Shown piece by piece: positions 1 to 25,554 of a stretch of 32,000 nt of DNA; within the stretch, counting starts at the first letter, position 1, and each line of letters opens with the position of its first letter. Source of the DNA: Gemmata obscuriglobus (GTDB lineage: Bacteria; Planctomycetota; Planctomycetia; Gemmatales; Gemmataceae). A model generated the notes under the pieces. The model searched no databases. It worked only from the letters and a program-made list of their open reading frames with translations, and was not told the DNA's origin. The DNA lies in assembly GCF_008065095.1 (NCBI RefSeq), contig NZ_CP042911.1, forward strand, positions 1,830,001-1,862,000. The letters run 5' to 3'. The position numbers and the translations under genes were made by a program.

Positions 1-912
1 GGCGTGAAGCGGTTCGAGAACCCGCAGCCGACCGCGGAGGCGACGTGGGAGGTGCCGCTGGCGCCCGGCCCGCACACGGTCGCGGTGATCGCCGACTCGC
101 CCGTCAGCAAGGGTATGTCGAAGGTCGGGCAGGTGCTGCGCGACGGCGAGGTCCCGAAGCCGAACCTGTACGTGCTCACGATGGGCGTGGCGGCGTACCC
201 CGGCAAGCTGAAACTCAACTACAGCGCCACCGACGCCGAAATGCTGGCCAAAGCGTTTCAGGAGAAGTCCCGGGGCACCTTCGACAAGATCGAGGTGAAG
301 GTACTGACGGACAAGGCCGCTAGCCGCCAGGGCATCCGCGACGGGCTGACGTGGCTCAAGTCGAAGATGACCCCGCAGGACGTGGGCATCGTGTCCTTTT
401 CCGGGCACGGCTCCCGGGACCTGTTCGGTCGCTTCTACCTGGTCCCGTTCATCGAGTCCGACCCGACCGCCGACGAGAGCGAGTGGGCGCTGTCCGGCGA
501 CGAGTTCAAGAAGCGGCTGGAGGACATGCCGGGGCGGCTGGTCGCGATCCTGGACGCGTGCCACTCGGGCTCGGTGGCCGAGAAGGACGGCCCGCCGCAG
601 GCGGACTCGCTGGTCCGCGACCTGACCGCCGAGGACTCCGGGGTGATCGTGATGTGCGCGTCGCTGGGCCGGGAGTACGCGGCCGAGAGCAAGATCTGCA
701 AGGCCGGGTTCTTCACGCTGGGGCTGGTGGAGGGGCTGAGCGGGCACGCGGACGTGGACGGCGACGGGGTCATTTACATCCACGAACTGGACATGTACGC
801 GACGGCGCGGGTGCGCCAGTTGAGCGGCGGGCTGCAGAACCCGACCCTGGGGCGCCCGTCGGCGGTGAAACCGTTCGTGATCGCCAAGCCCGGGAAACAG
901 GCCGCTCCGTGA
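1..912 (+). CDS. Caspase-like cysteine peptidase (peptidase C14 family), 5'-truncated by the window edge
   Basis: Frame is open from nt 1. Caspase/metacaspase pattern YVLTMGV...ATDAEMLAKAF...VSFSGHGS (His codon 406-408) and AILDACHSGS (Cys codon 559-561), then FFTLGLVEGLSGHADVDGDGVIYIHEL. Followed by a strong terminator. Confidence 0.85.
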   Translation, partial: GVKRFENPQPTAEATWEVPLAPGPHTVAVIADSPVSKGMSKVGQVLRDGEVPKPNLYVLTMGVAAYPGKLKLNYSATDAEMLAKAFQEKSRGTFDKIEVKVLTDKAASRQGIRDGLTWLKSKMTPQDVGIVSFSGHGSRDLFGRFYLVPFIESDPTADESEWALSGDEFKKRLEDMPGRLVAILDACHSGSVAEKDGPPQADSLVRDLTAEDSGVIVMCASLGREYAAESKICKAGFFTLGLVEGLSGHADVDGDGVIYIHELDMYATARVRQLSGGLQNPTLGRPSAVKPFVIAKPGKQAAP

Positions 913-930
913 CCGGAACGGCGCCCGATC

Positions 931-969
931 AACGCCGCGCGGACGTTCCGCGCGGCGTTTTTGTTTTTT
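931..969 (+). terminator. Rho-independent terminator after the caspase-like gene
   Basis: Perfect 13-bp GC-rich stem AACGCCGCGCGGA / TCCGCGCGGCGTT with a 3-nt loop, followed by TTTTTGTTTTTT. Confidence 0.8.
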
Positions 970-1047
970 CGGGCGCAACCGGGACGCGCCGCCGGTCGCG
1001 CGGCAATACCTTTCTGACCGGTGCGGCCGGTCGCACGGAGGCGCACG

Positions 1048-2832
1048 ATGCCGGGTTCTGTTCTCCACGCCGTGGCGCGGCTGACCGCGCCCGATCCACG
1101 CACGGACGCGGGCCTGGTGCGGGCGTTCCTGACCGGCTCGGACGAGGGCGCGTTCGCGGAGCTGGTGCGGCGGCACGGGCCGACGGTGCTGGGCGTGTGC
1201 CGCCGCGCATTGGGCGCGACGCCGGACGCGGAAGACGCGTTCCAGGCGACGTTCCTGGTGCTGGTGCGCCGCGCCCGCTCGACCGAGTGGCGCGACGCGC
1301 TCGGCCCGTGGCTGTACGGCGTCGCGCTCAAGGTCGCCCGCAAGGCCCGTGCGGCCCGTGTGAAGCGCCGCACCCACGAACGGCCGGAGCGCCCGATGAC
1401 CGAACCTGCGACCCCGCCCGCCGAGCCCGACGACGCGGTCGCCGTTCTGGACGAGGAGCTGGCCGCGCTGCCGGCGCGGTACCGGGCGCCGCTGGTGCTG
1501 TGCGAGATCCGGGGCGCGAGCCGCCGGGACGCGGCCCGCGAGCTGGGGCTCGCCGAGGGCACGCTCTCCAGCCGCCTCGCCCGCGGGCGCAAGCTGCTGC
1601 GCGAGCGGCTCGCGCGGCGCGGGGTCGCGCCCGCGGCCGGTGGGCTGGCGGTCGCTGTGCCGGCGGGGCTGGCCGGGGCCACCGTGCGGCACGCGACCCA
1701 CGCACTGGCGCGGGCGGCGGGGGCCGTTCCGGTCGCAATTCTGTCTCTCACGGAAGAGGTCACGAAAACCATGATCGCGAAATGGAAACTGGCGCTGGCG
1801 GCGGTGGCCACCTGCGCCACACTCACCACCCTCGGCGCGTGGAACACATCGGCGCATCCCGTGCCGGTCAGTAACGTTTCGGCCGCAGTGGCACGAGCCG
1901 ACGAGAAGAAGTCGGCTCCGCCGGCCAAGCAACCCGCCCCTGAGCGGGCGAAGGCCGAGGACGGTGCGGAGCGGGTCGCCACTATTTTCGGCGATGTGGC
2001 CGTTACGCGCGAGCAGTTTACCGAACACCTCATTCGTCGGTACGGGCAGAAAGAGCTGGAACGGTTCGTGAACAAGCAGGTCATCGCGCATGCGTTCGCC
2101 CGCAAGGGGCTCGCGCTGGCCCCGGCCGACCCCGAGGCGGCGCTGAACGAGATCTGCACGGCGTCTCGGATGAGCCGCGAGCAACTCGCTCAGGCGGTAC
2201 AGAGCCAGGGCTTTACGCTCGCGGAGTGGAACGAGGATGTCAACCTCCCCCGCGTGATGCTGGCGCACATGTGTAAGGCCAAAGTGGCGCCCCCGACCGA
2301 AGCCGAACTGCGCCAAGCGTTCGACGTGCGGTACGGCGAGAAGCTCGACTGCCGCGTCATCATCTGGACAAACGAAGACGAAGCTCAAAAGGCATACGAA
2401 AAGGTGCGTGGCAGCGAGAAGGAGTTTGACGCCCACGCCCGTCGGTCCGCGGTGGCGGGCCAACCGCGAACCGGCGTGGCCGCCGACGGCCGCGTCGCGC
2501 CGATCCCGCGCGCTCAGCCGCTCAAAGAGGAAGAACAAGTCCATCACGCCGCCGTCAAGAACTTGCAGCGCGGGGACGTGAGCCCACTTCTTCGGATCGA
2601 GCCTGGCTCGTTCGGATTCATGGTCGTTAAGTGTGACCGGGTGATCCCGGCGGACAAAACGAAGTCGTTCGAGAAGGAGAAGGCGGCCCTGATGCTTGAG
2701 GCGCTCGACGCGAAGGTCGTGAACGAATTCCCGAGGTTCCGTAACGAGCTGATGCAGCAGGCCGCCCCGAAATACCACCTCACGTTCCCGGAGCGCGAGT
2801 CGCTCCCGAAGCCCGATCCGGCGAAGAAGTAA
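1048..2832 (+). CDS. ECF-type sigma-70 family sigma factor fused to one TM helix and a periplasmic SurA-N/parvulin(PpiC)-like domain
   Basis: ATG at 1048 preceded by GGAGG. Sigma region 2 (FAELVRRHGP..DAEDAFQATFLVLVRRA) and region 4 HTH (PLVLCEIRGASRRDAARELGLAEGTLSSRLARGRKLLRERL). TM helix KWKLALAAVATCATLTTLGAW. C-terminal ~330 aa show a rotamase-like pattern (DCRVIIW..EDEAQKAYEKV..EKEFDAHAR...GDVSPLLRIEPGSFGFMVVKC). ORF track start 1021 was trimmed to the ATG shared with the paralog at 4010. Confidence 0.85.
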   Translation: MPGSVLHAVARLTAPDPRTDAGLVRAFLTGSDEGAFAELVRRHGPTVLGVCRRALGATPDAEDAFQATFLVLVRRARSTEWRDALGPWLYGVALKVARKARAARVKRRTHERPERPMTEPATPPAEPDDAVAVLDEELAALPARYRAPLVLCEIRGASRRDAARELGLAEGTLSSRLARGRKLLRERLARRGVAPAAGGLAVAVPAGLAGATVRHATHALARAAGAVPVAILSLTEEVTKTMIAKWKLALAAVATCATLTTLGAWNTSAHPVPVSNVSAAVARADEKKSAPPAKQPAPERAKAEDGAERVATIFGDVAVTREQFTEHLIRRYGQKELERFVNKQVIAHAFARKGLALAPADPEAALNEICTASRMSREQLAQAVQSQGFTLAEWNEDVNLPRVMLAHMCKAKVAPPTEAELRQAFDVRYGEKLDCRVIIWTNEDEAQKAYEKVRGSEKEFDAHARRSAVAGQPRTGVAADGRVAPIPRAQPLKEEEQVHHAAVKNLQRGDVSPLLRIEPGSFGFMVVKCDRVIPADKTKSFEKEKAALMLEALDAKVVNEFPRFRNELMQQAAPKYHLTFPERESLPKPDPAKK

Positions 2833-2858
2833 CGGCACGTCGTTACCCCATCGGTCCG

Positions 2859-2884
2859 TGCGGCCGGATGTTCCGGCCGCATTT
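2859..2884 (+). terminator. Hairpin, candidate weak terminator or attenuator, between the first sigma fusion and the stand-alone paralog
   Basis: TGCGGCCGGA-tgt-TCCGGCCGCA 10-bp stem followed by TTTC. The T-tract is short, so function is uncertain. Confidence 0.45.
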
Positions 2885-2912
2885 CGGTCCCTCACGGAAG
2901 AGGTCGAGAGCG

Positions 2913-3929
2913 ATGATTACGAGACAGAAACCCGCCTTGGTGGTACTCACGGCGTGCGTCGTACTCACCGGAGCGGGCGCGTGGCGCACACCGGCCCAAC
3001 CTCCCGCCGGGCTGGCGGACAAGGCAAGCGCGGGGCCGACTGCACCGCTGCCGACGGGTAAGGCGGGTGCGGAGCCGGTGGCCACGATCTTCGGTGACGT
3101 GGCGGTGACCCGCGAGCAGTTCGCCGATCACCTCATCCGCCGGTACGGGCCGAAGGAGCTAAAGGGGTTCGTGTACCGACAAATCGTGAGCACCGTGTTC
3201 GCTCGCCAGGGGCTCAAACTGTCGCCCGAGGAAATCCAGGAGCAACTCGACCGCACCGCCGCCGCACTCAAGATGTCACGGGAGCAGTTGGGAGCGGATA
3301 TCTTGAAGAGCCAGGGAAAGACGATCGACGAGTGGCACGAGGACGTAAACGTCCCAATCATCATGCTCTCACGGCTCGCAAAAGCCAAAGCCGCACCTCC
3401 GACCGAAGCGGAGCTACGCCAAGCGTTCGACGTGCGGTACGGCGAGAAACTCGACTGCCGCATCATCATCTGGGGTGACGAAAAAGAGGCCCGTGCGGCT
3501 TACGAGAAGGTGTGCAGCAGCGAGAAGGAGTTCGACGCCCACGCTCGCCGCTGCACTCAGGCCGGACAGCCGCGATCGGGTATCGCGACCGACGGACGCG
3601 GCGAGCCGATTCCCCGGGCGCAGCCGTTTGAGGGCCACCCGGCGGAACAGGCCGCGCATGCGGCCGCGGCGAAACTCCGACCGGGCGAGGTGAGTCCCTT
3701 GATTCCCGTTGAGATTGAAGGGGAGCGGGGATTCATCGCGCTCAAATGCGACCGGATCATTCCGGCGGACCGAACGAAATCGTTCGAGAAGGAGAAAGCG
3801 GCACTCGCGGACGATGTCACGGGCGCAAAAGTAGACAAGGAGTTCCGAAGGCTGTCGAAAGAGATCATGAAAGAGGCTGCCCCGCGGTATCATTTGACGT
3901 TCCCGAAGATCGATCCGGCGAAGAAGTGA
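2913..3929 (+). CDS. Membrane-anchored SurA-N/parvulin-like protein; sigma-less paralog of the C-terminal part of 1048-2832
   Basis: Colinear protein similarity to residues ~250-603 of the upstream gene (VATIFGDVAVTREQF.., APPTEAELRQAFDVRYGEKLDCRIIIW, SFEKEKAAL, YHLTFP..DPAKK). N-terminal TM MITRQKPALVVLTACVVLTGAGAW. Start is placed at ATG 2913 (GGAAGAGG 9 nt upstream) rather than ATG 2868, which lies inside the hairpin. Confidence 0.85.
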   Translation: MITRQKPALVVLTACVVLTGAGAWRTPAQPPAGLADKASAGPTAPLPTGKAGAEPVATIFGDVAVTREQFADHLIRRYGPKELKGFVYRQIVSTVFARQGLKLSPEEIQEQLDRTAAALKMSREQLGADILKSQGKTIDEWHEDVNVPIIMLSRLAKAKAAPPTEAELRQAFDVRYGEKLDCRIIIWGDEKEARAAYEKVCSSEKEFDAHARRCTQAGQPRSGIATDGRGEPIPRAQPFEGHPAEQAAHAAAAKLRPGEVSPLIPVEIEGERGFIALKCDRIIPADRTKSFEKEKAALADDVTGAKVDKEFRRLSKEIMKEAAPRYHLTFPKIDPAKK

Positions 3930-4009
3930 CCGTGCGGCGGGTGGTGCGGCTTCCCGTCCGTGTTGGGAATCTCGATTGCGTTGTTGCTTCGGCGGCACGG
4001 GAGCAGAGT

Positions 4010-5515
4010 ATGCCGGTTTCGGTTCTTCACGCGGTGTCGCATTTGATCGCTCCGGACGATCGCACGGACGCAGCCCTGGTGCGCGCGTTCGTGATCGACT
4101 CGGACGAGGGCGCGTTCGCGGAGCTGGTGCGGCGGCACGGGCCGTCGGTACTGGGCGTGTGCCGGCGGGCGCTCGGTCCCACGCCGGACGCGGAGGACGC
4201 GTTCCAGGCGACGTTCCTGGTGCTGGTGCGCCGCGCCAGTTCGACGCCGTGGCGTGCGGGCTTGGGGCCGTGGTTGTACGGGGTGGCGCTGCGGGTGTCG
4301 CGGAAGGTGCGCGCGCGTCGGTCGCGTCGCGTGTCGCGAGAGCGTGGGGAGGTTCCGATGGTGGAGCCGGTGGCGCCGGCGTCGGACCCGGACGACGCCG
4401 GCGCGGTGGTGGACGAGGAGCTGTCGGGCTTGCCAGCGCGGTACCGTGAGCCGCTGGTGCTGTGCGAGGTGCAGGGGCTGAGCCGGCGTGCGGCGGCTCG
4501 GGAGTTGGGCGTGGCGGAGGGGACGCTGTCGAGCCGCCTGGCGCGGGGGCGCAAGCTGCTGCGCGAGCGGCTGTCGCGTCGCGGCGTGGTGCCGGTGGCC
4601 GGCGGGTTGGGCGTGGCGGTGCCGTCGGGTCTGGCGGGTGCGACGGTGCGCCACGCGGTGGCGGCGCTGGGACGCTCGTCGGGTGTGGTGCCGGCGGCGG
4701 TGTTGTCCCTCACGGAGGAGGTCACAAAGGCGATGATGGCGAAATGGAAGTTGGCCCTGGCGGTGGTGGCCACGTGCGCCACGCTCACCAGCCTCGGAGC
4801 CTGGAATACGCCCGCGTTGTCCGTACCGATCGCCAGAGCGGCACACGCGGAAACGACACGAGAACAATCGGGACCAGCGGCACCCGCGGATGCGATTCCT
4901 TCAGTCGAGATCGTTGCCCGGGTTGGTGAGAGCCGCGTCATTACCAACCACGACGTTCGCGGCGTCCTGTACCTGATGCCCGGAGCGAGGGGGGCGGAGG
5001 CGCTGGCCGCGGCACTCGGCGCGCCCGCGGGGACCGCGTGGCACAACGATCTGCCCGCACAGGCACTCCGCAAGGCGATCGAGCGGGAACTCATCCTGGA
5101 CGAGATGCACACGCGGCTGAAGAAGGCCAACAAGTTGGTCGTGCTCGACGAAATTCAAGAAGTAGCCGGACCGTCCACTGACCGGCAGTTGCGTGCGCTT
5201 CGTGACAGGACCGGGGCGAAGTCGGACGAGGAGTTCGTTGCGCGGCTTCGCACGCAAGGATTAACGGTGCAGGTGATCCGCCGCCAGATGGAACGCCAGT
5301 TCATGGCCGACCAGTACGTCGCGAGCGTGGTGAAGGCGCGCCTGAAGGGTGACGGCGTGACGCGCGAGAGACGCGAAACTGAGCGTGACGCGCTCATCGA
5401 TGAGTTGTGGCGGAAGGGAACCGTTCGCGTGTTCGATCCGCTCGCCCGTGGCGCATTGAAGCACCGCATCACGGCCCCCGCTCAGGAGCCGCCCACCGAA
5501 CCCGCAAAGGAGTGA
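4010..5515 (+). CDS. ECF-type sigma factor fused to one TM helix and a SurA-N-like periplasmic domain (no parvulin part)
   Basis: ATG 4010 gives MPVSVLHAV.., matching MPGSVLHAV of the 1048 gene. Sigma regions 2 and 4 are nearly identical to the paralog. TM KWKLALAVVATCATLTSLGAW. C-terminal VEIVARVGESRVITNHDV...RELILDEMH...QMERQFMADQYV resembles the SurA N-terminal chaperone domain. The upstream part of track ORF 3746-5515 overlaps the previous gene and is not coding. Confidence 0.85.
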   Translation: MPVSVLHAVSHLIAPDDRTDAALVRAFVIDSDEGAFAELVRRHGPSVLGVCRRALGPTPDAEDAFQATFLVLVRRASSTPWRAGLGPWLYGVALRVSRKVRARRSRRVSRERGEVPMVEPVAPASDPDDAGAVVDEELSGLPARYREPLVLCEVQGLSRRAAARELGVAEGTLSSRLARGRKLLRERLSRRGVVPVAGGLGVAVPSGLAGATVRHAVAALGRSSGVVPAAVLSLTEEVTKAMMAKWKLALAVVATCATLTSLGAWNTPALSVPIARAAHAETTREQSGPAAPADAIPSVEIVARVGESRVITNHDVRGVLYLMPGARGAEALAAALGAPAGTAWHNDLPAQALRKAIERELILDEMHTRLKKANKLVVLDEIQEVAGPSTDRQLRALRDRTGAKSDEEFVARLRTQGLTVQVIRRQMERQFMADQYVASVVKARLKGDGVTRERRETERDALIDELWRKGTVRVFDPLARGALKHRITAPAQEPPTEPAKE

Positions 5516-15365: not shown

Positions 15366-15553
15366 GAATGCACCCTCACCTGCGTCCCGGTGTTCGTTCG
15401 ACTCGCGGTGGGGATATAGTGTTTTCAGCGAAGCTGCGAAAGGTCAAGTCGGGGCGACCGCGGCCCCGCAAATGCGGTTGACGGGTTCCACCCAATGTTG
15501 ACAATGGCGTGTTAGTTATCGGCCATGCCGGCCAACCGGAGAGGGACAGTTTG

Positions 15554-18169
15554 ATGAACGCGCGAGCGTGGACGATAGGCGCACTTGCTGCGATAGGACT
15601 GCTGGCGGCCCCCCTGGTCGGTTCCGCCGCAGAACCGGCCGCGGAGCCGGCCGGCGGAAAAGCTCAGGGACCCTACGTCGTGGTCGTCGGCGTCGGGGAG
15701 TTCCAGGACAAGGCGATCAGCCCCCGGCCGACCGCCGACGCGGACGCGAAGGCGCTCCACGCGCTGCTCACCGACAAAAAGTACCTCGGCGCTTCCCCCG
15801 ATCGGGCCAAGCTCCTGACCTCTTCGGGTGCGACCCGCGAGGCGGTGGTGAAGGCCGTCGACGCGGCCGCCGCCGCCACCGGCGGTGACGACACCGTGAT
15901 CCTCGCGTTCTTCGGCCGCGGGTCGTCCACCGGCGACAAGCCGTGCTTCTTGACGAACGACAGCACGGTGAAGGACCGGGCGAAGACCGCTCTGCTGATG
16001 AGCGACCTGGAGCCGGCGTTTAAGAAGTTCAAGAGCCAGAACGTCCTGCTGCTGATGGACGTGCAGTACAAGGGCGGGGTCGACGCGGGGGCCGAGAAGA
16101 TCCTCGAGCCGAGCTGGCTCGAGATCATGAAGCTCGTGTTCGGCGACGAGAAGGACGAGAACATGCTCCCGCCGAACCGGGTGCTGGTCCTCGGCAACCC
16201 GCCGTTCCAGGACGCGCTCACGAAGGGCGACCACGGCCTGTTCTACTCCGTGCTCTCCGACGCGCTGGGCGGGAAGGCCGACCAGGCGCCGTACAACGAG
16301 GGCTACGAGTCGGACGGCATCGTCACCACCCGCGAGCTGCTCAAGTACCTCGAAAAAGAGATCCCGAACGCGGCCCGCGCGACCGGCAAAACCGACAAGG
16401 AAAAGGAACTCGAACCCGTCTTCGTCGGCCGCGGCGCCAGCAAGTTCTGGGTCACCCGCAACCCGGCCGAGACCGACACCATCAAGAAGCGGCTCGACGC
16501 CGTGGAGGGGCTCGCGAAGGCCGGCAAGCTCACCCCCGACCTCGTTAAAGAGGGCGTGGACCTGCTGTTCCGGATGCCCAAGCTGAAGTGGTCGCAGGCG
16601 CTCCGCAAGGAGTACCAGAAGCTGGCCGACGGCGGCGCCACCGTGGCCGATCTCGAGGCGCACCGCAAGAAGCTGCTCGAGGACCTGAAGCTCGATACCG
16701 ACGCCGCCGCGGAGTTCACCCGGAAGGTGCTGCCGGCGATCTACAAGCTGTCGGCCGAGTACATCAAGCCGATGACCCGCGGCGAGCTCACCGCCCTCGC
16801 GGTGAAGGGGCTGTTCGCCGAGGCCGACGAACCCGTCCCGGCCGACATCGCCGACACGATCAAGACCCCCGAGAAGATCAGCGACGAGCGCGGCAAGGAG
16901 CTGCTCACCGAGGCCCGGTTGCGGCTCGGCAAGCGCGAGGACCTCGACGGCGCGAAGGGCGCCGATGTGACCGTCCGCGCGCTGGTCGGCGCCCTCCACG
17001 ACCCCTACGCCGGTTACTTCACAAAGGAAGAGTGGCTCCGCACACAGGGCCAACTGTTCGGCCGGTTCCCGGGCGTCGGGATTATAATCCGCCGCGAGGC
17101 CGTGCGCGACGGGCTCCTCGTCGTCACCCCGATTAAAGGCAGCCCGGCGTTCCGCGCGGGTATTCAGGCGGGGGACCTGATCACGGAGATCCGCCTCGAA
17201 GTGGACAAGGAGGGCAAGCCGCTCCCGGCCGACGCCAAGAAGGTCCACAGCACGAAGGGGCTGAAGACCGACGACGCGGTGAACCTGATCACCGGCGCCC
17301 CGGACACCCCGGTTTCGCTCGTCGTCTCGCGGGAAGGTGAACCGGAGCCGAAAGTGTACCGCATCACCCGCAACTATGTGATGGTGGAAACCGTTCACGG
17401 GGTCAAGCGGGACGAGAAGAACGACTGGGGCTACTACCTCGACGAGAAGAGCAAGATCGGCTACCTGCACCTGAGCCAGTTCATCACGGTGTCCAACGAG
17501 TTGGGCACGCCGGCCGATGTCCGGCGCGCGGTGGCGGCCCTGAAACGGACCGGCCTCAACGGGCTCGTCATTGACGTGCGCAACAACCCCGGCGGGTCGC
17601 TCAAGGCCGTCATCGACATCTGCGAGCAGTTCGTCGGCAAGGAGGCGATCGTGACCACGAAGGAGCGGGGCGGCGCGGGCGCCACGTTCACCTACTCGGG
17701 CCGCAGCGCGGGCGACCGGAGCTTCCCGATTGTGGTGCTCATCAACGGGAACAGCGCCAGCGCCAGCGAGATCCTGGCCGCGTGCCTGCAGGACCACAGC
17801 CGCGCCACGATCATGGGCGAGCGGACCTACGGGAAGGGCAGCGTCCAGCACGTCGAGGAGTACGACGCGACCGGCGGGCGGGTCAAGTACACCGTCGCCC
17901 GGTACTACCCGCCGAGCGGGCGCAACATCGACAAGGTGGCGATGGAGCAGTCGACCGAGCTGAAGTCCCGCGACGAGTGGGGCGTGAAGCCCGACGCCGG
18001 GTTCGAACTCAAGATGACCCGCGAGGAGCTGGCCGACTGGTTCGAGTACAGCCGCGACCTCGAAGTGATCCCGGTGCCGGGCAAGAAGGCGCCGACGGTC
18101 GACCCGGGTAAGGACAAGCAACTGGCGAAGGCGCTTGAGCACCTCCAGGGGCTGGTCAACCGAAAGTGA
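15554..18169 (+). CDS. Secreted fusion: degenerate caspase-like (C14) domain + linker + PDZ + S41 C-terminal processing peptidase (Ctp/Prc family)
   Basis: Signal peptide MNARAWTIGALAAIGLLAAPLVGSAAEP. Caspase-like fold pattern YVVVVGVGEF..DADAKALHALL..ILAFFGRGS..LLLMDVQYKG..GDHGLFYSVLSDALGGKAD..DGIVTTRELLKYL. PDZ (GVGIIIRRE..LLVVTPIKGSPAFRAGIQAGDLITEI). S41 core (GLVIDVRNNPGGSL, VLINGNSASASEILAACLQD, GERTYGKGSVQ). Confidence 0.88.
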   Translation: MNARAWTIGALAAIGLLAAPLVGSAAEPAAEPAGGKAQGPYVVVVGVGEFQDKAISPRPTADADAKALHALLTDKKYLGASPDRAKLLTSSGATREAVVKAVDAAAAATGGDDTVILAFFGRGSSTGDKPCFLTNDSTVKDRAKTALLMSDLEPAFKKFKSQNVLLLMDVQYKGGVDAGAEKILEPSWLEIMKLVFGDEKDENMLPPNRVLVLGNPPFQDALTKGDHGLFYSVLSDALGGKADQAPYNEGYESDGIVTTRELLKYLEKEIPNAARATGKTDKEKELEPVFVGRGASKFWVTRNPAETDTIKKRLDAVEGLAKAGKLTPDLVKEGVDLLFRMPKLKWSQALRKEYQKLADGGATVADLEAHRKKLLEDLKLDTDAAAEFTRKVLPAIYKLSAEYIKPMTRGELTALAVKGLFAEADEPVPADIADTIKTPEKISDERGKELLTEARLRLGKREDLDGAKGADVTVRALVGALHDPYAGYFTKEEWLRTQGQLFGRFPGVGIIIRREAVRDGLLVVTPIKGSPAFRAGIQAGDLITEIRLEVDKEGKPLPADAKKVHSTKGLKTDDAVNLITGAPDTPVSLVVSREGEPEPKVYRITRNYVMVETVHGVKRDEKNDWGYYLDEKSKIGYLHLSQFITVSNELGTPADVRRAVAALKRTGLNGLVIDVRNNPGGSLKAVIDICEQFVGKEAIVTTKERGGAGATFTYSGRSAGDRSFPIVVLINGNSASASEILAACLQDHSRATIMGERTYGKGSVQHVEEYDATGGRVKYTVARYYPPSGRNIDKVAMEQSTELKSRDEWGVKPDAGFELKMTREELADWFEYSRDLEVIPVPGKKAPTVDPGKDKQLAKALEHLQGLVNRK

Positions 18170-20184: not shown

Positions 20185-20490
20185 CGTCGCATCGTCGCCC
20201 GTTGGCGCGTCGCAGGACAAACTGATCACGCTGCCGGGATGGGGTAACGCTCGGAAACGAGTCGGGACCGCTCGGGAGCGGGTGATGTATCCCGCTTCCG
20301 AGCAGTGCGGATCGTCAAAAACGCTGCGCACTTACGTCCGTCTGCTCAGTCTTTTGAATCGTTATTACACCCTTGACGCCCCACATGGTGGGCGCTCGCT
20401 CTACCAGCGGGTTGATTACACCTCAAACGGTGAGGGGCGTTGAATCCGCCTCGACTGCCCGAGCGAAACCACTGGGTCAGGCCGTTGTCC

Positions 20491-21753
20491 ATGCGAGGAA
20501 TGCCCATGAGCCCGATCCGTGCGTTCGCCTGCGTGCTCCTGTTGGTTCCGCCGGTGGCGGGCGCGGAGCCAGAGGTGTGGCCCCAGTGGCGTGGCCCCAC
20601 CCGGGACGGTCTTGTCGCCGGTGCCGCCTGGCCCGACAAGTTGGGCGGCGACGCTCTCAAACGCGTCTGGCGTGTCGAGAACCTCGGCCCCAGTTACTCG
20701 GGACCGATCGTGACCGCCGACCGCGTGTTTACGACCCAGACCGTGGACAAGAAGACCGAAGTCGTCACCGCCCACGACCGCAAGACGGGAAAGGAGCTGT
20801 GGAAGGTTTCGTGGGAGGGCGCCATCACGGTGCCGTTCTTCGCCGCGAAGAACGGGAGCTGGATTCGCTCGACTCCGGCGTTCGACGGGAAAACGCTGTT
20901 CGTTGCCGGTATCAAGGACCTGCTGGTCGCGCTGGACGGGGCCACCGGGAAGGAGCGGTGGCGGTGCGATTTCGTCAAGGAGTTCGGCGCTCCGCCCCCC
21001 GACTTCGGGTTCGTCTGTTCGCCGCTCGTCGACGACACCGGCGTGTACGTCCAGGCCGGCGGGTGCTTCGCGAAGCTCGACAAGGCTACCGGTAAGGTGC
21101 TCTGGACGGCACTCAAGGACGGCGGCGGGACCATGGGGTCCGCGTTCTCGTCGCCGGTGTTCGCGCGGCTCGCGGGCAAGGAGCAGGTGCTCGTGCAGAC
21201 GCGCACGAAGCTCGCCGGGGTGGACCGCGGCACCGGCGAGGAACTGTGGGTGAAAGAGATCCCTTCGTTCCGCGGGATGAACATTCTCACCCCGGTGCCG
21301 GTGGGCGACGACGGCGTGTTCACCAGCACCTATGGCGGGAACACCCGGTTGCTGCGGCTGAAGAGCGACGGAGGCCAGTACTCCGCCCAAGACGCCTGGA
21401 GCTTCAAATACGAGGGCAACATGACTTCGCCGGTGGTGGTGGCCGGCCACGCCTATTTGCTCGGAAAGGACAAGCGGTTGCTCTGCACGAACCTCGAAAC
21501 CGGCAAAGAGGTCTGGCGTTCGGAGGAGCGGTTCGGGGACTACTGGAGCTTGGTCGCGAACCGCGACAAGGTGCTGGCCCTCGACCAGCGCGGGACGCTG
21601 TACCTGTTCCGCGCGAGCGCAAAGGAGTTCGACCTGCTGGACCAGAGGAAGGTCGCCGACGCGGAGACGTGGGCGCACCTCGCGGTGTGCGGCGACGAAG
21701 TGGTGATTCGCGATCTGACCGGGCTGACGATGTGGCGGTGGGGCGTCCGGTAA
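20491..21753 (+). CDS. PQQ-like / BamB-like beta-propeller repeat protein, secreted
   Basis: Signal MRGMPMSPIRAFACVLLLVPPVAGA, then EVWPQWRGPTRDG. Repeated ...G.V(F/Y)....G.L.ALD..TGKE.W motifs are typical of PQQ_2/BamB-type propellers. Start is ambiguous among ATG 20491, 20500 and 20506. Confidence 0.8.
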   Translation: MRGMPMSPIRAFACVLLLVPPVAGAEPEVWPQWRGPTRDGLVAGAAWPDKLGGDALKRVWRVENLGPSYSGPIVTADRVFTTQTVDKKTEVVTAHDRKTGKELWKVSWEGAITVPFFAAKNGSWIRSTPAFDGKTLFVAGIKDLLVALDGATGKERWRCDFVKEFGAPPPDFGFVCSPLVDDTGVYVQAGGCFAKLDKATGKVLWTALKDGGGTMGSAFSSPVFARLAGKEQVLVQTRTKLAGVDRGTGEELWVKEIPSFRGMNILTPVPVGDDGVFTSTYGGNTRLLRLKSDGGQYSAQDAWSFKYEGNMTSPVVVAGHAYLLGKDKRLLCTNLETGKEVWRSEERFGDYWSLVANRDKVLALDQRGTLYLFRASAKEFDLLDQRKVADAETWAHLAVCGDEVVIRDLTGLTMWRWGVR

Positions 21754-21804: not shown

Positions 21805-23382
21805 TCAACTGGAACCGGCGTCGCTTTCGGGGCGCTCGGGCTTCCTTCGGAGCAGCCGGGCCATCCCGTACCCCAGCCCGACCGCCGACAGCACGCCGGA
21901 CGCGCCCACGGCGAGCATGATCCAGTCGCGGCGGTCCGGTTGCCAGAGCGGACGGTCCGGTTCGGGGGCCATCAGCGCTCCCGAGTCGGCCACCAGTTCG
22001 ACGTTGATCTCTCCCGGCGGCAGCGGTAGCGGCACCGGCACCGGGACGGGTATCGGAGCCGCGGTCGGGACGGCCCGTGGCGGCGTCGGGGTGCTTGCGA
22101 GTGCGGGCGTCGGGGCCGTGCCCACTTTCGGCGCCGCTTTCGCAGTCGCCTTCGGCGCCGGGGCCGGTGGCTTCATAGGTAGGGCGGGTGCCGAATCGTG
22201 TTTCGCCGGTCGAGCCGTCGGCAGCTTCGGCGCTTCCAACTGCGACTCACTTTCGAGCCAGTCTTTGAACGCGGGCTGGAGGTTCGGCGCCGGCGCGGCC
22301 CCGCCTGTGGTGAACCGCTTTAGCGCGAGAGCCGCCTCGGTCGGAGTCTGGTACCGCGCCTCGGGCGTTTTCGCGAGCAGCTTGTCGAGCACCTGCTGGA
22401 ACCCGTTCGGCAGGTCGGACACGAACGTGCTCAGCGGCGGCGCCTTCTCGGTCGCGTGCTTGAGCATCTGCGCCATGATGTTCGACTCGGGGAAGGGCGG
22501 GTTCCCCGCGACGCACTGGTGCACCAAGCAGCCGAGCGAGTAGAGGTCCGCCCGGATGTCGGCGGTGCTTGCGTCCTTCGCCTGCTCGGGGGCGAGGTAG
22601 TCGGGCGTGCCGAGCACCGACCCTTCCAGAGTGAGTTTCGCGTCCGCCTGGGATTCCGGAACGCTGTCGTCGAACAACTCGCGGCCCAGCCCGACGTCCA
22701 GGATCTTGACGGTCGCGTCGAGTGTGGTGTCGGGCTTGCCCTTCGCCGGCTCCGGGGTGAGCATGATGTTCGCGGGCTTCAGGTCGCGGTGCACCATGCG
22801 GCGCTCGTGCAGGTGCTGGAGCCCGTCGAGCGTTTGCGTCGCGAGCCGCACCACCTCGGGCCAGGGCAACCGCTTGCGGCGCTCCAGCACGTCCGCGAGC
22901 GTCTCGCCCTCAATGTGTTCCATCGCGATGAAGTGGACCCCGCCGCTCTCGCCGACCTGGAACGCGCGCACCACGTTCGGGTGGTCGAGCTGGGTGAGCA
23001 ACCGGGCCTCGCGCTGGAACCGCCCCAGCACCTGCGGGTTCTTGGCCCGCGACGCCGACAGGATCTTCAGCGCCACGACCTGCCCGAAGTTGTGGACGGC
23101 CTTATACACCCCGCCCATTTGCCCCTTACCGATGCGGTCGAGGATCTTGTACCCGCCGAGGAAGAACCCGTCGGCGCGGCCGCGCTGCACGATCGCGGCC
23201 TGGTAGTCGGTCAGGCACTTGCGGGCGACGAGGAACCGGCGGAACGAGTCCACGCGGTCGTCCGGGCCGGGCTTCTCCTGTTGCCACTGGTGATACTGCG
23301 CGCTCACCTCTTCCGGCGGGAGCAGCCGGCTCTTCACCAGCAGCGTGCAGTACTCGGCCGCGGTCGTGACGGGAGTAGCCAT
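21805..23382 (-). CDS. Ser/Thr protein kinase with C-terminal TM segment
   Basis: ATG 23382 (track start 23391 is a TTG). GKGQMGGVYKA, VALKIL, HRDLKPANIML, DVGLGR, GTPDYLAPEQ. Pro/Ala-rich linker and TM WIMLAVGASGVLSAVGLGYGMA. Confidence 0.9.
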   Translation of the reverse strand: MATPVTTAAEYCTLLVKSRLLPPEEVSAQYHQWQQEKPGPDDRVDSFRRFLVARKCLTDYQAAIVQRGRADGFFLGGYKILDRIGKGQMGGVYKAVHNFGQVVALKILSASRAKNPQVLGRFQREARLLTQLDHPNVVRAFQVGESGGVHFIAMEHIEGETLADVLERRKRLPWPEVVRLATQTLDGLQHLHERRMVHRDLKPANIMLTPEPAKGKPDTTLDATVKILDVGLGRELFDDSVPESQADAKLTLEGSVLGTPDYLAPEQAKDASTADIRADLYSLGCLVHQCVAGNPPFPESNIMAQMLKHATEKAPPLSTFVSDLPNGFQQVLDKLLAKTPEARYQTPTEAALALKRFTTGGAAPAPNLQPAFKDWLESESQLEAPKLPTARPAKHDSAPALPMKPPAPAPKATAKAAPKVGTAPTPALASTPTPPRAVPTAAPIPVPVPVPLPLPPGEINVELVADSGALMAPEPDRPLWQPDRRDWIMLAVGASGVLSAVGLGYGMARLLRRKPERPESDAGSS

Positions 23383-23555
23383 AAGACTCAAAAGTCAGAG
23401 GACAGGGGACGCAGTCAGGAGACAGAGCCCGACGCCCGGTCCGGTTGGCCGCGCCTGGTGTTTCGTAGCACAGGTCGGAACACCAGTGCCGTAATGGGGT
23501 AACGCCAGCGCACACGCCAACAACCGGATCGCGAACCAGACGCGCTCGCTGCCTG

Positions 23556-25124
23556 CTACTTCTTTCTCGAATCCTCGACCATCTGGCGCACGGCCGGGTC
23601 GTCACCGGCCACCCCTAGCACGGCGTCCCGGACGGCCGCGGCCTCGGCCGCGCGGCCCTGGGCGTCGAAGGCCTTTGCGTGTTCGAGGGCGGCACGCACC
23701 GGCTCGCGGTCGAGCGGCGGTCGGGGGGCGCGCACCGTTTGCTGGGCCAGGAGTGCGTGCCCCGTACGCGCGAGTTCGACCCAGCGCTGCTCCGACGGGA
23801 CCGCCGCGAACGCCGCAACCACGCCCTCCCACGCCTCCCGCGCCTGCGCGGTCTCGCCCGCCTGCGCGAACCGCAGCCCGCGCAGATACCCGCGCTCGGC
23901 GTCGGTCCGCGGGTCGGCTTTCGCCCCCTCCGTGATCGCGCGCCGCAGTTCTCGGCGGTCCCGGATGCGCCGGCGGGCGGCGGCCAACTCGTCCTTGTAC
24001 CGGTCGGCGTACTTTCGCGTGAGCGGCTCCAGGTACTTCTCGGCGGCGTCCCAGTCGTCGGGGTTGTCGGATTCGACCAGCGGTTGGGCGGCGGTGAACA
24101 ACTCGTCCGCGGACGGCTCCGGCCACGCGAACGGCAGCACCAGCGCCGCCACCGCCGCCAGGAACAGGGGGATCACGACGACGGGCCGCTTCAGGAGGGG
24201 CCGCGGCTCGGGGGCCGGGTCGTCCGTATCGCCCCCGCCCAGGGCCGCCGGGAGCGCCGGCATTTCGGCTGTGTCGGGCGTGAGCTTCGCGGGCCACACG
24301 AGTTTCTCGCCCTTGCGCTCCAACTTGCCGCGCACCCGCTCCAACTCGTCGAGCAGCGCGGCGGCGGTCGCCGGGCGCCGCGCCGGGTTCTTGTCGAGCA
24401 GGGTGCAAACGAACTCGTCCACCTCCGCCGGGAGGTCGGGGACGAGCAGCGCCGGCCGCTCCGGGAGCGTGTAACACTGCTTGTGCATCAGTTCGACCAC
24501 CGACCCGGCGGAGAACGGGGGGCGGCCGGTCACCAGAGTATAAAGCACGCCCCCGAGCGAGTACAAATCGCTCCGCCGGGTGAGCGGCTTGCCGCTCGCG
24601 GTCTCCGGCGGCAGGTACGCCGCCGACCCGATCGCCGGAACGTGGCTCGGGGGCGAGGGGAACACCTTGGCGATCCCGAACGCGAGGAGCTTCAGCGTCC
24701 CGTCGGGCGCGATAACGAAGTTGGCGGGCTTGAGGTCGCGGTGCAGGACGTTCCGGTTGTGCGCGTGTTTCAGCGCCCGCGCCGCCTGAACCGCGACGCC
24801 CAGCACCTCGCGCCAGGGGAGCTTTCCCGCTTCGAGGCGCTTCGCGCAGTCGGTGCCGGCGACGAACTCGGACGCGACGAACGCCAGCCCGCCGTGGGTG
24901 CCGCAGTCGATGGTTTTGGCGATGTTCGCGTGGTCGAGCCGCTGGAGCGGGAGCAGCTCGGCGGCCATCCGCTGCACCGCCGCGGGGTCGCGCACCCCGG
25001 TGAACACTTTTACCGCGGTCACCTTCTCGGGGTCGTCGAACCCGCGGGCGCGGTACACCACCCCGAGCGGACCGTGCCCGATTTCGGACTCGACGTACCA
25101 GTTTCCGACCCGCGCACCGATCAT
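23556..25124 (-). CDS. Ser/Thr protein kinase, single TM, helical repeat (TPR-like) C-terminal domain
   Basis: ATG 25124 gives MIGARVGNWYVESEIGHGPLGVVYRA. AVKVF, HRDLKPANFVI, AFGIAKV, AAYLPPE. TM VVVIPLFLAAVAALVLPFAW. Helical Ala/Arg-rich tail. Confidence 0.9.
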   Translation of the reverse strand: MIGARVGNWYVESEIGHGPLGVVYRARGFDDPEKVTAVKVFTGVRDPAAVQRMAAELLPLQRLDHANIAKTIDCGTHGGLAFVASEFVAGTDCAKRLEAGKLPWREVLGVAVQAARALKHAHNRNVLHRDLKPANFVIAPDGTLKLLAFGIAKVFPSPPSHVPAIGSAAYLPPETASGKPLTRRSDLYSLGGVLYTLVTGRPPFSAGSVVELMHKQCYTLPERPALLVPDLPAEVDEFVCTLLDKNPARRPATAAALLDELERVRGKLERKGEKLVWPAKLTPDTAEMPALPAALGGGDTDDPAPEPRPLLKRPVVVIPLFLAAVAALVLPFAWPEPSADELFTAAQPLVESDNPDDWDAAEKYLEPLTRKYADRYKDELAAARRRIRDRRELRRAITEGAKADPRTDAERGYLRGLRFAQAGETAQAREAWEGVVAAFAAVPSEQRWVELARTGHALLAQQTVRAPRPPLDREPVRAALEHAKAFDAQGRAAEAAAVRDAVLGVAGDDPAVRQMVEDSRKK

Positions 25125-25179
25125 GTCAGATATGGTAATCACTGGCCGGAGTGGGGCCACCGCGAAACGAAAGGTGGAT

Positions 25180-25554
25180 ATGGGTACACGCACCGTCGCC
25201 GTGCTGCTGATCGCGCATGGGAGCCGCCGCCCGGAGGCGAACGCCGACCTCGAGTTCGTCGCCGCTTCCCTGCGGGCGCGGGGGCGGTACCCCGTCGTGC
25301 AGGTCTCCTACCTCGAACTGGCGGAACCCGACATCGAAACCGGCGGCGCGCAGTGCGTCGGGGCCGGTGCCACGGATGTGCTTCTGCTGCCGTACTTTTT
25401 GTCCCCGGGGATTCACGTTGCCGAAGACCTGACCGAGGCCCGCGAGAAGTTGAGCGCGCGGTTCCCGTGGGTGCGGTTCGCGCTGGCCGAGCCGCTCGGC
25501 CGGCACCCGCTCTTGATCGACGTGCTGGAGCAGCGCGCCCGGGCGGCGGAATAA
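25180..25554 (+). CDS. cbiX: Small CbiX/SirB-type sirohydrochlorin chelatase
   Basis: AAGGTGGA just upstream of ATG 25180. AVLLIAHGSRRPEANADLE and VLLLPYFLSPGIHVAEDL match the CbiX(S) pattern. 124 aa. The upstream part of track ORF 24853-25554 is antisense to the kinase. Confidence 0.8.
   Translation: MGTRTVAVLLIAHGSRRPEANADLEFVAASLRARGRYPVVQVSYLELAEPDIETGGAQCVGAGATDVLLLPYFLSPGIHVAEDLTEAREKLSARFPWVRFALAEPLGRHPLLIDVLEQRARAAE

Follow-up and report, generated by a model that had tools for sequence, protein, structure and literature searches.

Membrane-tethered extracytoplasmic function sigma factors with chaperone-like periplasmic domains in Gemmata obscuriglobus

In a 32,000-nucleotide stretch of Gemmata obscuriglobus DNA (contig NZ_CP042911.1, positions 1,830,001 to 1,862,000; referred to below as the window), two of three consecutive plus-strand genes, here named A, B and C, encode sigma factors that are tethered to the membrane. 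Genes A and C each join an extracytoplasmic function (ECF) sigma factor, a linker and a single transmembrane (TM) helix to a periplasmic part resembling the chaperones PrsA and SurA, and are members of the planctomycete family of sigma factors with C-terminal extensions. Gene B, which lies between them, is a paralog that keeps a membrane anchor and the chaperone-like module without the sigma domains.

The three same-strand reading frames had been reported in an earlier note made from the sequence alone, and an open reading frame check returned them at the same coordinates (table 1). The domains that the note assigned to protein A (sigma2, sigma4, a single TM helix and a SurA-N/parvulin fold) were recovered by Pfam, by a family profile and by an AlphaFold2 (AF2) model searched with Foldseek. 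Proteins A and C are clearly paralogous, with 71% identity across amino acids (aa) 1–312 (sigma, linker and TM helix), although the term ‘near-identical’ used at first was too strong. Protein B aligns with A aa 242–594 (56% identity, E 1e-125), in agreement with its initial description as a TM and SurA/parvulin-like part lacking sigma domains, and its similarity to C is confined to the TM region. No further sigma or module paralogs occur within the window.

The sigma, linker and membrane cassette

Both A and C exceed the Pfam cut-offs for Sigma70_r2 (PF04542) and Sigma70_r4_2 (PF08281), the TIGR02937 (sigma70-ECF) score of 63 bits likewise exceeds the cut-off of that model (42.9), and Foldseek finds the sigma part to resemble the structures of SigW, sigmaE, SigH, SigL and AlgU. 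Sigma regions 1 and 3 gave no Pfam matches in A and C, which have regions 2 and 4 only, as do ECF (group 4) sigma-70 factors. Two cysteines, C51 and C152, are present in 48/48 full-length sigma–module homologs, and 60 or more other positions of the sigma part and linker are invariant or nearly so in these 48 fusions, which come from several genera.

The conserved unit does not end with sigma4. It continues through a linker of about 55 aa, in which AF2 places helices at 206–220 and 229–261 of protein A. Sigma4 is followed by a Gly/Ala-rich stretch and a helix, and then by the motif LTEGVLKxM and basic residues that precede the TM helix. This motif and the TM helix are common to relatives whose C-terminal parts are secretin-like or belong to Poly_export, ExbD, DUF2807 or WD40, and the Met that precedes the helix (M242 in A) is invariant in the 48 fusions as well as in 21 relatives that share the cassette but whose C-terminal domains are unrelated. 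A single TM helix followed by an extracytoplasmic domain is predicted, as the second AF2 helix of A contains a hydrophobic stretch at 246–266 with Lys on its N-terminal side. The TM segments are clearly hydrophobic in relatives of A and C, and the module family is otherwise found behind N-terminal signal anchors.

An assembly or frameshift artefact joining the sigma and membrane parts, which the earlier note had named as a refutation of its proposal, is excluded by the 48 full-length homologs, which keep the frame uninterrupted down to 36% identity. A second TM helix at A aa 193–211, which would leave the module in the cytoplasm, was also rejected: this segment is the strongest hydrophobic window (Kyte–Doolittle 1.57), yet it is Gly/Pro-rich and modelled as coil, with a predicted local distance difference test score (pLDDT) below 50. 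In relatives, the hydrophobic run at this place spans only about 13 residues.

A and C probably belong to the group ECF57, which we take to be the former ECF01-Gob; planctomycete ECF01-Gob factors with long C-terminal extensions were reportedly described by Jogler in 2012. ECF57 is a planctomycete group with long extensions, among which WD40 repeats are prevalent but not universal, and its hallmark is a pair of conserved cysteines, one each in sigma2 and sigma4 (PMC8999054); it reaches about 5.3 copies per planctomycetal genome (Casas-Pastor 2021, PMC7826278). A and C share with this group their planctomycete origin, the many paralogs per genome, a sigma2–sigma4 core in which C51 and C152 match the hallmark pair, and an extension that runs past the membrane segment (about 400 and 310 aa long in A and C, respectively), and the parallel that the note had drawn with ECF01-Gob was therefore apt. 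Close sigma relatives of A (P0109 and P0118) do carry WD40 extensions, whereas the extension is a PrsA/SurA-type module in A and a parvulin-less scaffold in C, and Pfam finds no WD40 matches in A, B or C.

Chaperone-like modules and the origin of gene B

Taken individually, the proteins of the window remain below threshold (SurA_N, E 3e-4; Rotamase_2, E 9e-3; PrsA, E 5e-4 for B). However, the Pfam Rotamase cut-off is exceeded by P0003, an ortholog with 72% identity, and precomputed PF00639 or PF13145 matches exist for many homologs. A profile built from the periplasmic parts of 24 sequences matches PrsA structures across both the helical and the parvulin parts (E 1.2e-15, 3.9e-14 and 3.8e-11), with LIC12922, SurA and Pin1 ranking after PrsA in the same search of solved structures. 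The AF2 model of A has a mean pLDDT of 83, mostly above 90 over aa 305–580, and its best Foldseek matches in the PDB are LIC12922, six PrsA structures, SurA and PEB4/Cj1289 (E 5e-9 to 1e-5). As the P0003 match, the family profile and the model all agree, the chaperone-like identity of the module can be regarded as settled. A and B thus have the layout typical of PrsA, SurA, PpiD, PEB4/Cj1289 and LIC12922, an N/C helical chaperone domain into which a parvulin fold is inserted. Membrane tethering is likewise shared with PrsA (through a lipid anchor) and PpiD (through an N-terminal TM helix), and the layout of B is PpiD- or PrsA-like. The differences lie in the low identity to solved structures (10–18%), in the family-wide loss of two histidines and in the anchor helix, which in A and C continues into a cytoplasmic sigma factor.

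These histidines are the catalytic pair of parvulin peptidyl-prolyl isomerases (PPIases), equivalent to H59 and H157 of Pin1. When Bacillus subtilis PrsA is aligned with A by HMMER, ‘SHILV’ faces ‘CRVII’ (His to R436), which bears out the replacement already noticed by eye, and ‘GYHIIK’ faces ‘GFMVVK’ (His to M525). Since both are lost in all 48 homologs, none of which has a His at or beside either position, the A-type parvulin domain probably has no PPIase activity. The P1 parvulin domain of SurA and that of PpiD are likewise PPIase-inactive. Two cysteines of A, C435 (2350–2352) and C529 (2632–2634), flank the lost positions; they occur together in 33/48 homologs and are both absent from 9/48, with 6 mismatches, a pattern suggestive of a disulfide that staples the two central strands in the periplasm.

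The periplasmic part of C had been described as SurA-N-like only, and it does match a free PpiC-family protein (40% identity, E 2e-30) over residues 5–166 and then over the last 50 residues, skipping exactly the Rotamase domain (173–274) of that protein. Hence, C has an N/C chaperone scaffold that lacks a parvulin insert. Its model, built on a 6-sequence alignment, is poor (pLDDT 57.8), which accounts for the weak match of the periplasmic helices to SurA; a homolog search with this part returned 3 matches and missed known orthologs. In two sigma–TM relatives from metagenomes and metagenome-assembled genomes (MAGs), P0026 (704 aa) and P0061 (875 aa), an extra domain, made of Poly_export/SLBB-like or lipocalin-like repeats, was observed between the TM helix and the C-terminal PrsA-like module, so that the module can lie distal to other periplasmic domains.

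Gene B bears traces of its descent. Its start Met aligns with M242 of A, the juxtamembrane residue that is invariant in the cassette family; the 50 nt preceding its ATG are homologous, at the DNA level, to the A and C codons for GAVPVAILSLTEEV; and a free paralog in Frigoriglobus retains the in-frame relic VLSLTKGVVKTM. Because the 5′ untranslated region, the start Met and the Frigoriglobus relic all match the cassette, B-type genes are 5′-truncated duplicates of a sigma fusion gene and not the ancestor of the fusion. The N-terminus of B (2913–2984) reads MITRQKPALVVLTAC, in which LTAC fits a lipobox, and orthologs have VAAC, so that B might be a lipoprotein like PrsA; the Cys is missing from the B protein of SH-PL17, and the corresponding ATC of A and C is non-canonical.

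The same evidence bears on whether each fusion gene makes two products, M242 serving as an internal start for an additional sigma-less anchored protein and the response being set by the proportion of tethered sigma relative to free module. We consider this doubtful, although it can coexist with the proteolytic release proposed below. The invariance of the Met irrespective of the C-terminal domain would be explained, as would the purine-rich T-E-(G/E) codons 9–12 nt upstream of it, and both B, which starts at exactly the M242 equivalent with former T-E-E codons as its Shine–Dalgarno sequence, and the in-frame Frigoriglobus relic point in the same direction. However, a Shine–Dalgarno-like sequence follows from the conserved T-E-G itself, which makes selection on nucleotides inseparable from selection on protein, and the spacing is 11 nt in A and C against 6–9 nt at real starts.

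As to its role, B had been proposed as a competitor or decoy. It looks more like a partner, even though the two roles are inseparable in silico. Indeed, two metagenomic proteins, P0002 and P0004, have the single-chain order sigma–TM–module–module, and in P0002 a type 1 (A-type) module is followed by a type 2 (B-type) module, matching the order of genes A and B. By a Rosetta-stone argument, the fusion of both types in P0002 would indicate that the A and B modules act together, and the frequency of double modules in the wider family favours the same role. PrsA is itself dimeric.

Selection, exchange and a possible folding-stress signal

At an E-value threshold of 1e-3, the module family comprises 672 clusters. 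The 150 best cluster representatives include 91 single modules, each behind a signal anchor of its own, as well as 39 double modules in tandem and 18 fusions to sigma, so that sigma-less forms (130) greatly exceed fusions (18). The gene order caspase, A, B, C, nucleoside:H+ symporter and TIM-barrel gene is identical in G. algarum JC673; A–B is kept without C in Gemmata sp. IIL30, SH-PL17 and GCA_049309705, and Frigoriglobus has B then A in another gene context. A search for related loci with a tighter alignment covered 4 loci only.

A class of planctomycete ECFs with varied extensions is already known, together with the evolutionary process behind it. Sigma duplicates of Gemmataceae carry many unrelated C-terminal extensions (PMC7671368; PMC7826278), and a model has been put forward in which a minimal sigma2–sigma4 unit is duplicated and then captures downstream sequence fortuitously (Pinto & da Fonseca 2020, PMC7671368). 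The present locus resembles this model in that the sigma parts of A and C are similar while their extensions look unrelated, and in that free relatives of the extensions exist in the same and related genomes. It departs from the model, and adds to the published picture, in two respects. First, in the relatives examined, the unit shared by paralogs is not the minimal sigma2–sigma4 but runs through the 55-aa linker and the membrane anchor, and every domain acquired by it consequently ends up in the periplasm. Second, traffic also went in reverse, as B is a fusion gene minus its sigma part.

All parts of the genes are clearly under purifying selection. Compared with G. algarum, the ratio of non-synonymous to synonymous substitution rates (dN/dS) is 0.13 for the sigma part of A, 0.22 for its linker and TM helix, 0.31 for B and 0.30 for the periplasmic part of C; flanking genes range from 0.03 to 0.09, and no value reaches 0.4. 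The periplasmic module of A is only 50.7% identical to that of G. algarum (dS 1.17), versus 94% for the sigma part. Clustering separates two module types, and in most genomes the sigma-linked module is of type 1 and that of B of type 2, whereas the sigma-linked module of G. obscuriglobus is of type 2 and shares 90% identity with a free paralog in G. algarum JC717. Modules have evidently been exchanged between paralogs.

Taken together with the described process, in which a function of the extensions has been questioned (Pinto & da Fonseca 2020, PMC7671368), such swapping raises the question of an evolutionary by-product. The fusions would then be young, left where a duplicated cassette landed beside or within chaperone genes; the chaperone module would be the functional part, and the sigma part would have little or no signalling role or would be decaying. 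The large number of ECFs in G. obscuriglobus (more than 115; PMC4598750) and the excess of sigma-less modules over fusions are consistent with this. So is the apparent frameshift in the A ortholog of Gemmata sp. IIL30 (L003 3795–5784), where tblastn returns two overlapping segments in different frames (aa 1–246 and aa 151–588) and the database protein P0039 begins inside sigma4; either pseudogenisation by a frameshift or a misassembly would account for this. We nevertheless find a by-product unlikely, because the sigma part is strongly constrained: it has the lowest dN/dS of the parts compared and 94–98% identity between species, fusions from several genera have retained the two Cys together with at least 60 further positions of the sigma part and linker, and the fusion frame persists in distant homologs.

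What the constrained sigma part might do is suggested by two hybrids in which an ECF sigma factor, a TM helix and an extracytoplasmic domain are likewise found in one polypeptide. Release of IutY (Pseudomonas putida, ECF243) by Prc and RseP has been demonstrated, and release of SCO4117 (Streptomyces coelicolor, ECF52), in which a Pro-rich spacer likewise precedes the binding domain, by regulated proteolysis has been proposed (PMC8999054). By analogy, A and C could be tethered sigma factors that regulated proteolysis releases under folding stress, with the chaperone-like domain as periplasmic sensor and B as its partner; in our judgement, this proposal has about equal chances of being right or wrong. 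The TM helix would keep the sigma factor membrane-bound and inactive, possibly with the help of the conserved linker. The periplasmic module, alone or paired with B, would bind unfolded secreted or envelope proteins, and the client load, or titration of B, would expose the spacer or the module to a site-1 protease. Intramembrane cleavage would then free the sigma factor, as in IutY. Since the sigma cassettes of A and C are about 78% identical, they would bring two different periplasmic inputs to a similar regulon. ECFs have been recovered from membrane fractions of the gemmataceal Tuwongella (PMC8567305), which fits membrane anchoring.

In functional terms only, the proposal recalls the E. coli sigmaE–RseA–RseB–DegS pathway, where the sensing of unfolded periplasmic proteins is passed to an ECF sigma factor by regulated proteolysis. 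The E. coli pathway, however, distributes sensor, anti-sigma and sigma factor over separate polypeptides and uses a PDZ protease as sensor, whereas in A and C a chaperone-like domain is covalently joined to the sigma factor. If the proposal is true, A and C would be the first instance of a direct connection between a sigma factor and a chaperone domain for envelope folding.

Several observations weigh against proteolytic release. IutY and SCO4117 have other sensing domains and contain anti-sigma domains (FecR-like, ZAS), whereas none is detectable between sigma4 and the TM helix of A and C: neither the linker sequence nor a linker profile has a Pfam match or a PDB sequence match at E up to 10. 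The anti-sigma part of the single-chain combination of sigma, anti-sigma and sensor imagined in the earlier note is thus putative at most; a cryptic structural mimic of an anti-sigma domain could lie within the linker. The TM helices of A and C are only moderately hydrophobic (1.3–1.45 in a 19-residue Kyte–Doolittle window), the locus has no linked site-1 or site-2 protease, and more distant sigma–module fusions stand alone, with no adjacent B gene. Moreover, the exact module may matter little, as that of A has been swapped to the B type in G. obscuriglobus, and the extensions have been seen as products of fortuitous insertion whose regulatory role is questionable (Pinto & da Fonseca, PMC7671368). 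Finally, the signalling steps, including the processing of A and C, are inferred from the architecture that the data show.

The lack of a detectable anti-sigma domain and of a linked protease would equally suit a sigma factor that is active while resident in the membrane. In that case, the anchored full-length protein would bind RNA polymerase and direct transcription in a ToxR/CadC-like manner, and client binding would act through conformation or oligomerisation, with no proteolysis. For ECF57, protein interaction or conformational change and a role of the conserved Cys have indeed been proposed (PMC8999054), and Gemmataceae have heavily invaginated membranes, with ECFs and SigA paralogs found in detergent fractions (PMC8567305). 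Yet the IutY and SCO4117 hybrids are activated by removal of the extension. We also know of no precedent for a covalently membrane-anchored sigma factor working in holoenzyme, and rate this alternative as quite unlikely.

A further reading, which appears improbable to us, treats the cassette as a portable plug-in, provided with its own internal start, that would make any periplasmic protein a transcriptional sensor, every such gene yielding a tethered sigma factor as well as its sensor domain without sigma. Sigma release would be triggered when unfolded clients draw the free modules, B and the internal-start products, away from the module joined to sigma. The locus would then be a self-contained folding-load sensor and the one-polypeptide counterpart of sigmaE–RseA–DegS.

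An 886-aa S41 peptidase (tail-specific, Prc/Ctp-type) with a PDZ domain is encoded 10 kb downstream of the triplet (15509–18169, plus strand). As Prc is the site-1 protease of IutY, it may be considered a candidate processing protease.

In the literature, we found no sigma or anti-sigma factor described with an extension of the PrsA/SurA/parvulin type, nor any description of the conserved linker–TM cassette or of sigma-less derivatives arising by truncation. The novelty suggested at first stands for this type of extension and is narrower than implied, the general phenomenon having been published. Reviews cite no experimentally characterised ECF57 member, and published work leaves the regulatory role of the extensions open. 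The locus therefore offers a tractable test case, with a module whose client binding can be assayed, a sigma-less neighbour, a second sigma factor with a trimmed scaffold, and purifying selection on all of them.

Locus features and neighbouring genes

The coordinates of all features are collected in table 1. As the upstream caspase-domain gene ends in a strong intrinsic terminator, gene A begins a separate transcription unit, and a terminator scan found none between A, B and C. The candidate promoter motif is kept in G. algarum, Gemmata sp. IIL30 and the MAG RYN_437. It occurs once in the window and not upstream of B or C, and no regulon can accordingly be inferred from it. The GGAGG of gene A sits in a block, CGCACGGAGGCG(C/A)AC, that is invariant across five genomes including Frigoriglobus, which supports ATG 1048 as the start; A and C orthologs begin at the same Met.

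Table 1. Features of the A–B–C locus, in window coordinates.
Feature	Position	Strand	Description
Intrinsic terminator of upstream caspase-domain gene	931..969	+	13-bp stem and T run
Candidate promoter of A	981..1009	+	GGGACGCGC-N-CGGCAATAC; conserved upstream motif
Ribosome-binding site of A	1037..1041	+	GGAGG, within conserved block
Gene A	1048..2832	+	594 aa; ECF sigma, linker, TM helix, Pro/Ala spacer, PrsA/SurA-like module
A sigma region 2	1162..1350	+	aa 39–101; contains invariant C51
A sigma region 4	1447..1599	+	aa 134–184; contains invariant C152
A conserved cytoplasmic linker	1615..1770	+	aa 190–241; ends in juxtamembrane motif LTE(G/E)V.K
Codon of A M242	1771..1773	+	invariant in cassette family; equivalent to B start codon
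A TM helix (predicted)	1783..1845	+	about aa 246–266; Lys on N-terminal (cytoplasmic) side
A Pro/Ala-rich periplasmic spacer	1846..1962	+	aa 267–305; low confidence, pLDDT below 50
A N-terminal part of SurA-N/PrsA N/C chaperone domain	1963..2334	+	aa 306–429
A parvulin-like domain	2335..2652	+	aa 430–535; both conserved His replaced (R436, M525)
A C-terminal helix completing N/C chaperone domain	2668..2775	+	aa 541–576
5′ untranslated region of B	2863..2912	+	degenerate relic of linker codons (GAVPVAILSLTEEV); former T-E-E codons are the Shine–Dalgarno sequence (GGAAGAGG)
Gene B	2913..3929	+	338 aa; sigma-less paralog, N-terminal membrane anchor and PrsA/SurA-like module
Gene C	4010..5515	+	501 aa; sigma–linker–TM cassette and parvulin-less N/C chaperone scaffold
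C sigma regions 2 and 4	4124..4561	+	aa 39–184
C TM helix (predicted)	4745..4807	+	about aa 246–266
C periplasmic SurA-N/PrsA N/C-like domain	4892..5437	+	aa 295–476; no parvulin insert

The spacer between A and B contains a GC-rich hairpin with a perfect 9-bp stem (2858–2884; GCGGCCGGA-TGT-TCCGGCCGC), which is without a proper T tract and overlaps the relic of linker codons; the spacer as a whole folds no better than its shuffles (z -1.7).

Directly upstream of A lies a Peptidase_C14 (caspase-domain) gene (4–912, plus strand), which is 98.7% identical and syntenic in G. algarum, is also present in Gemmata sp. IIL30 and is absent from the Frigoriglobus and SH-PL17 loci. Further downstream, a BamB-like PQQ_2 beta-propeller gene (20440–21753, plus strand) and two Ser/Thr protein kinase genes (21805–23391 and 23556–25193, minus strand) have no evident link to the triplet and represent typical Gemmataceae signalling content.

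Protein A (P0001) is 100% identical to a G. obscuriglobus database protein. One NCBI record names it ‘MraY-like glycosyltransferase’, which fits none of its domains and is a probable misannotation; an ortholog is labelled ‘PpiC domain-containing protein’ in UniRef.

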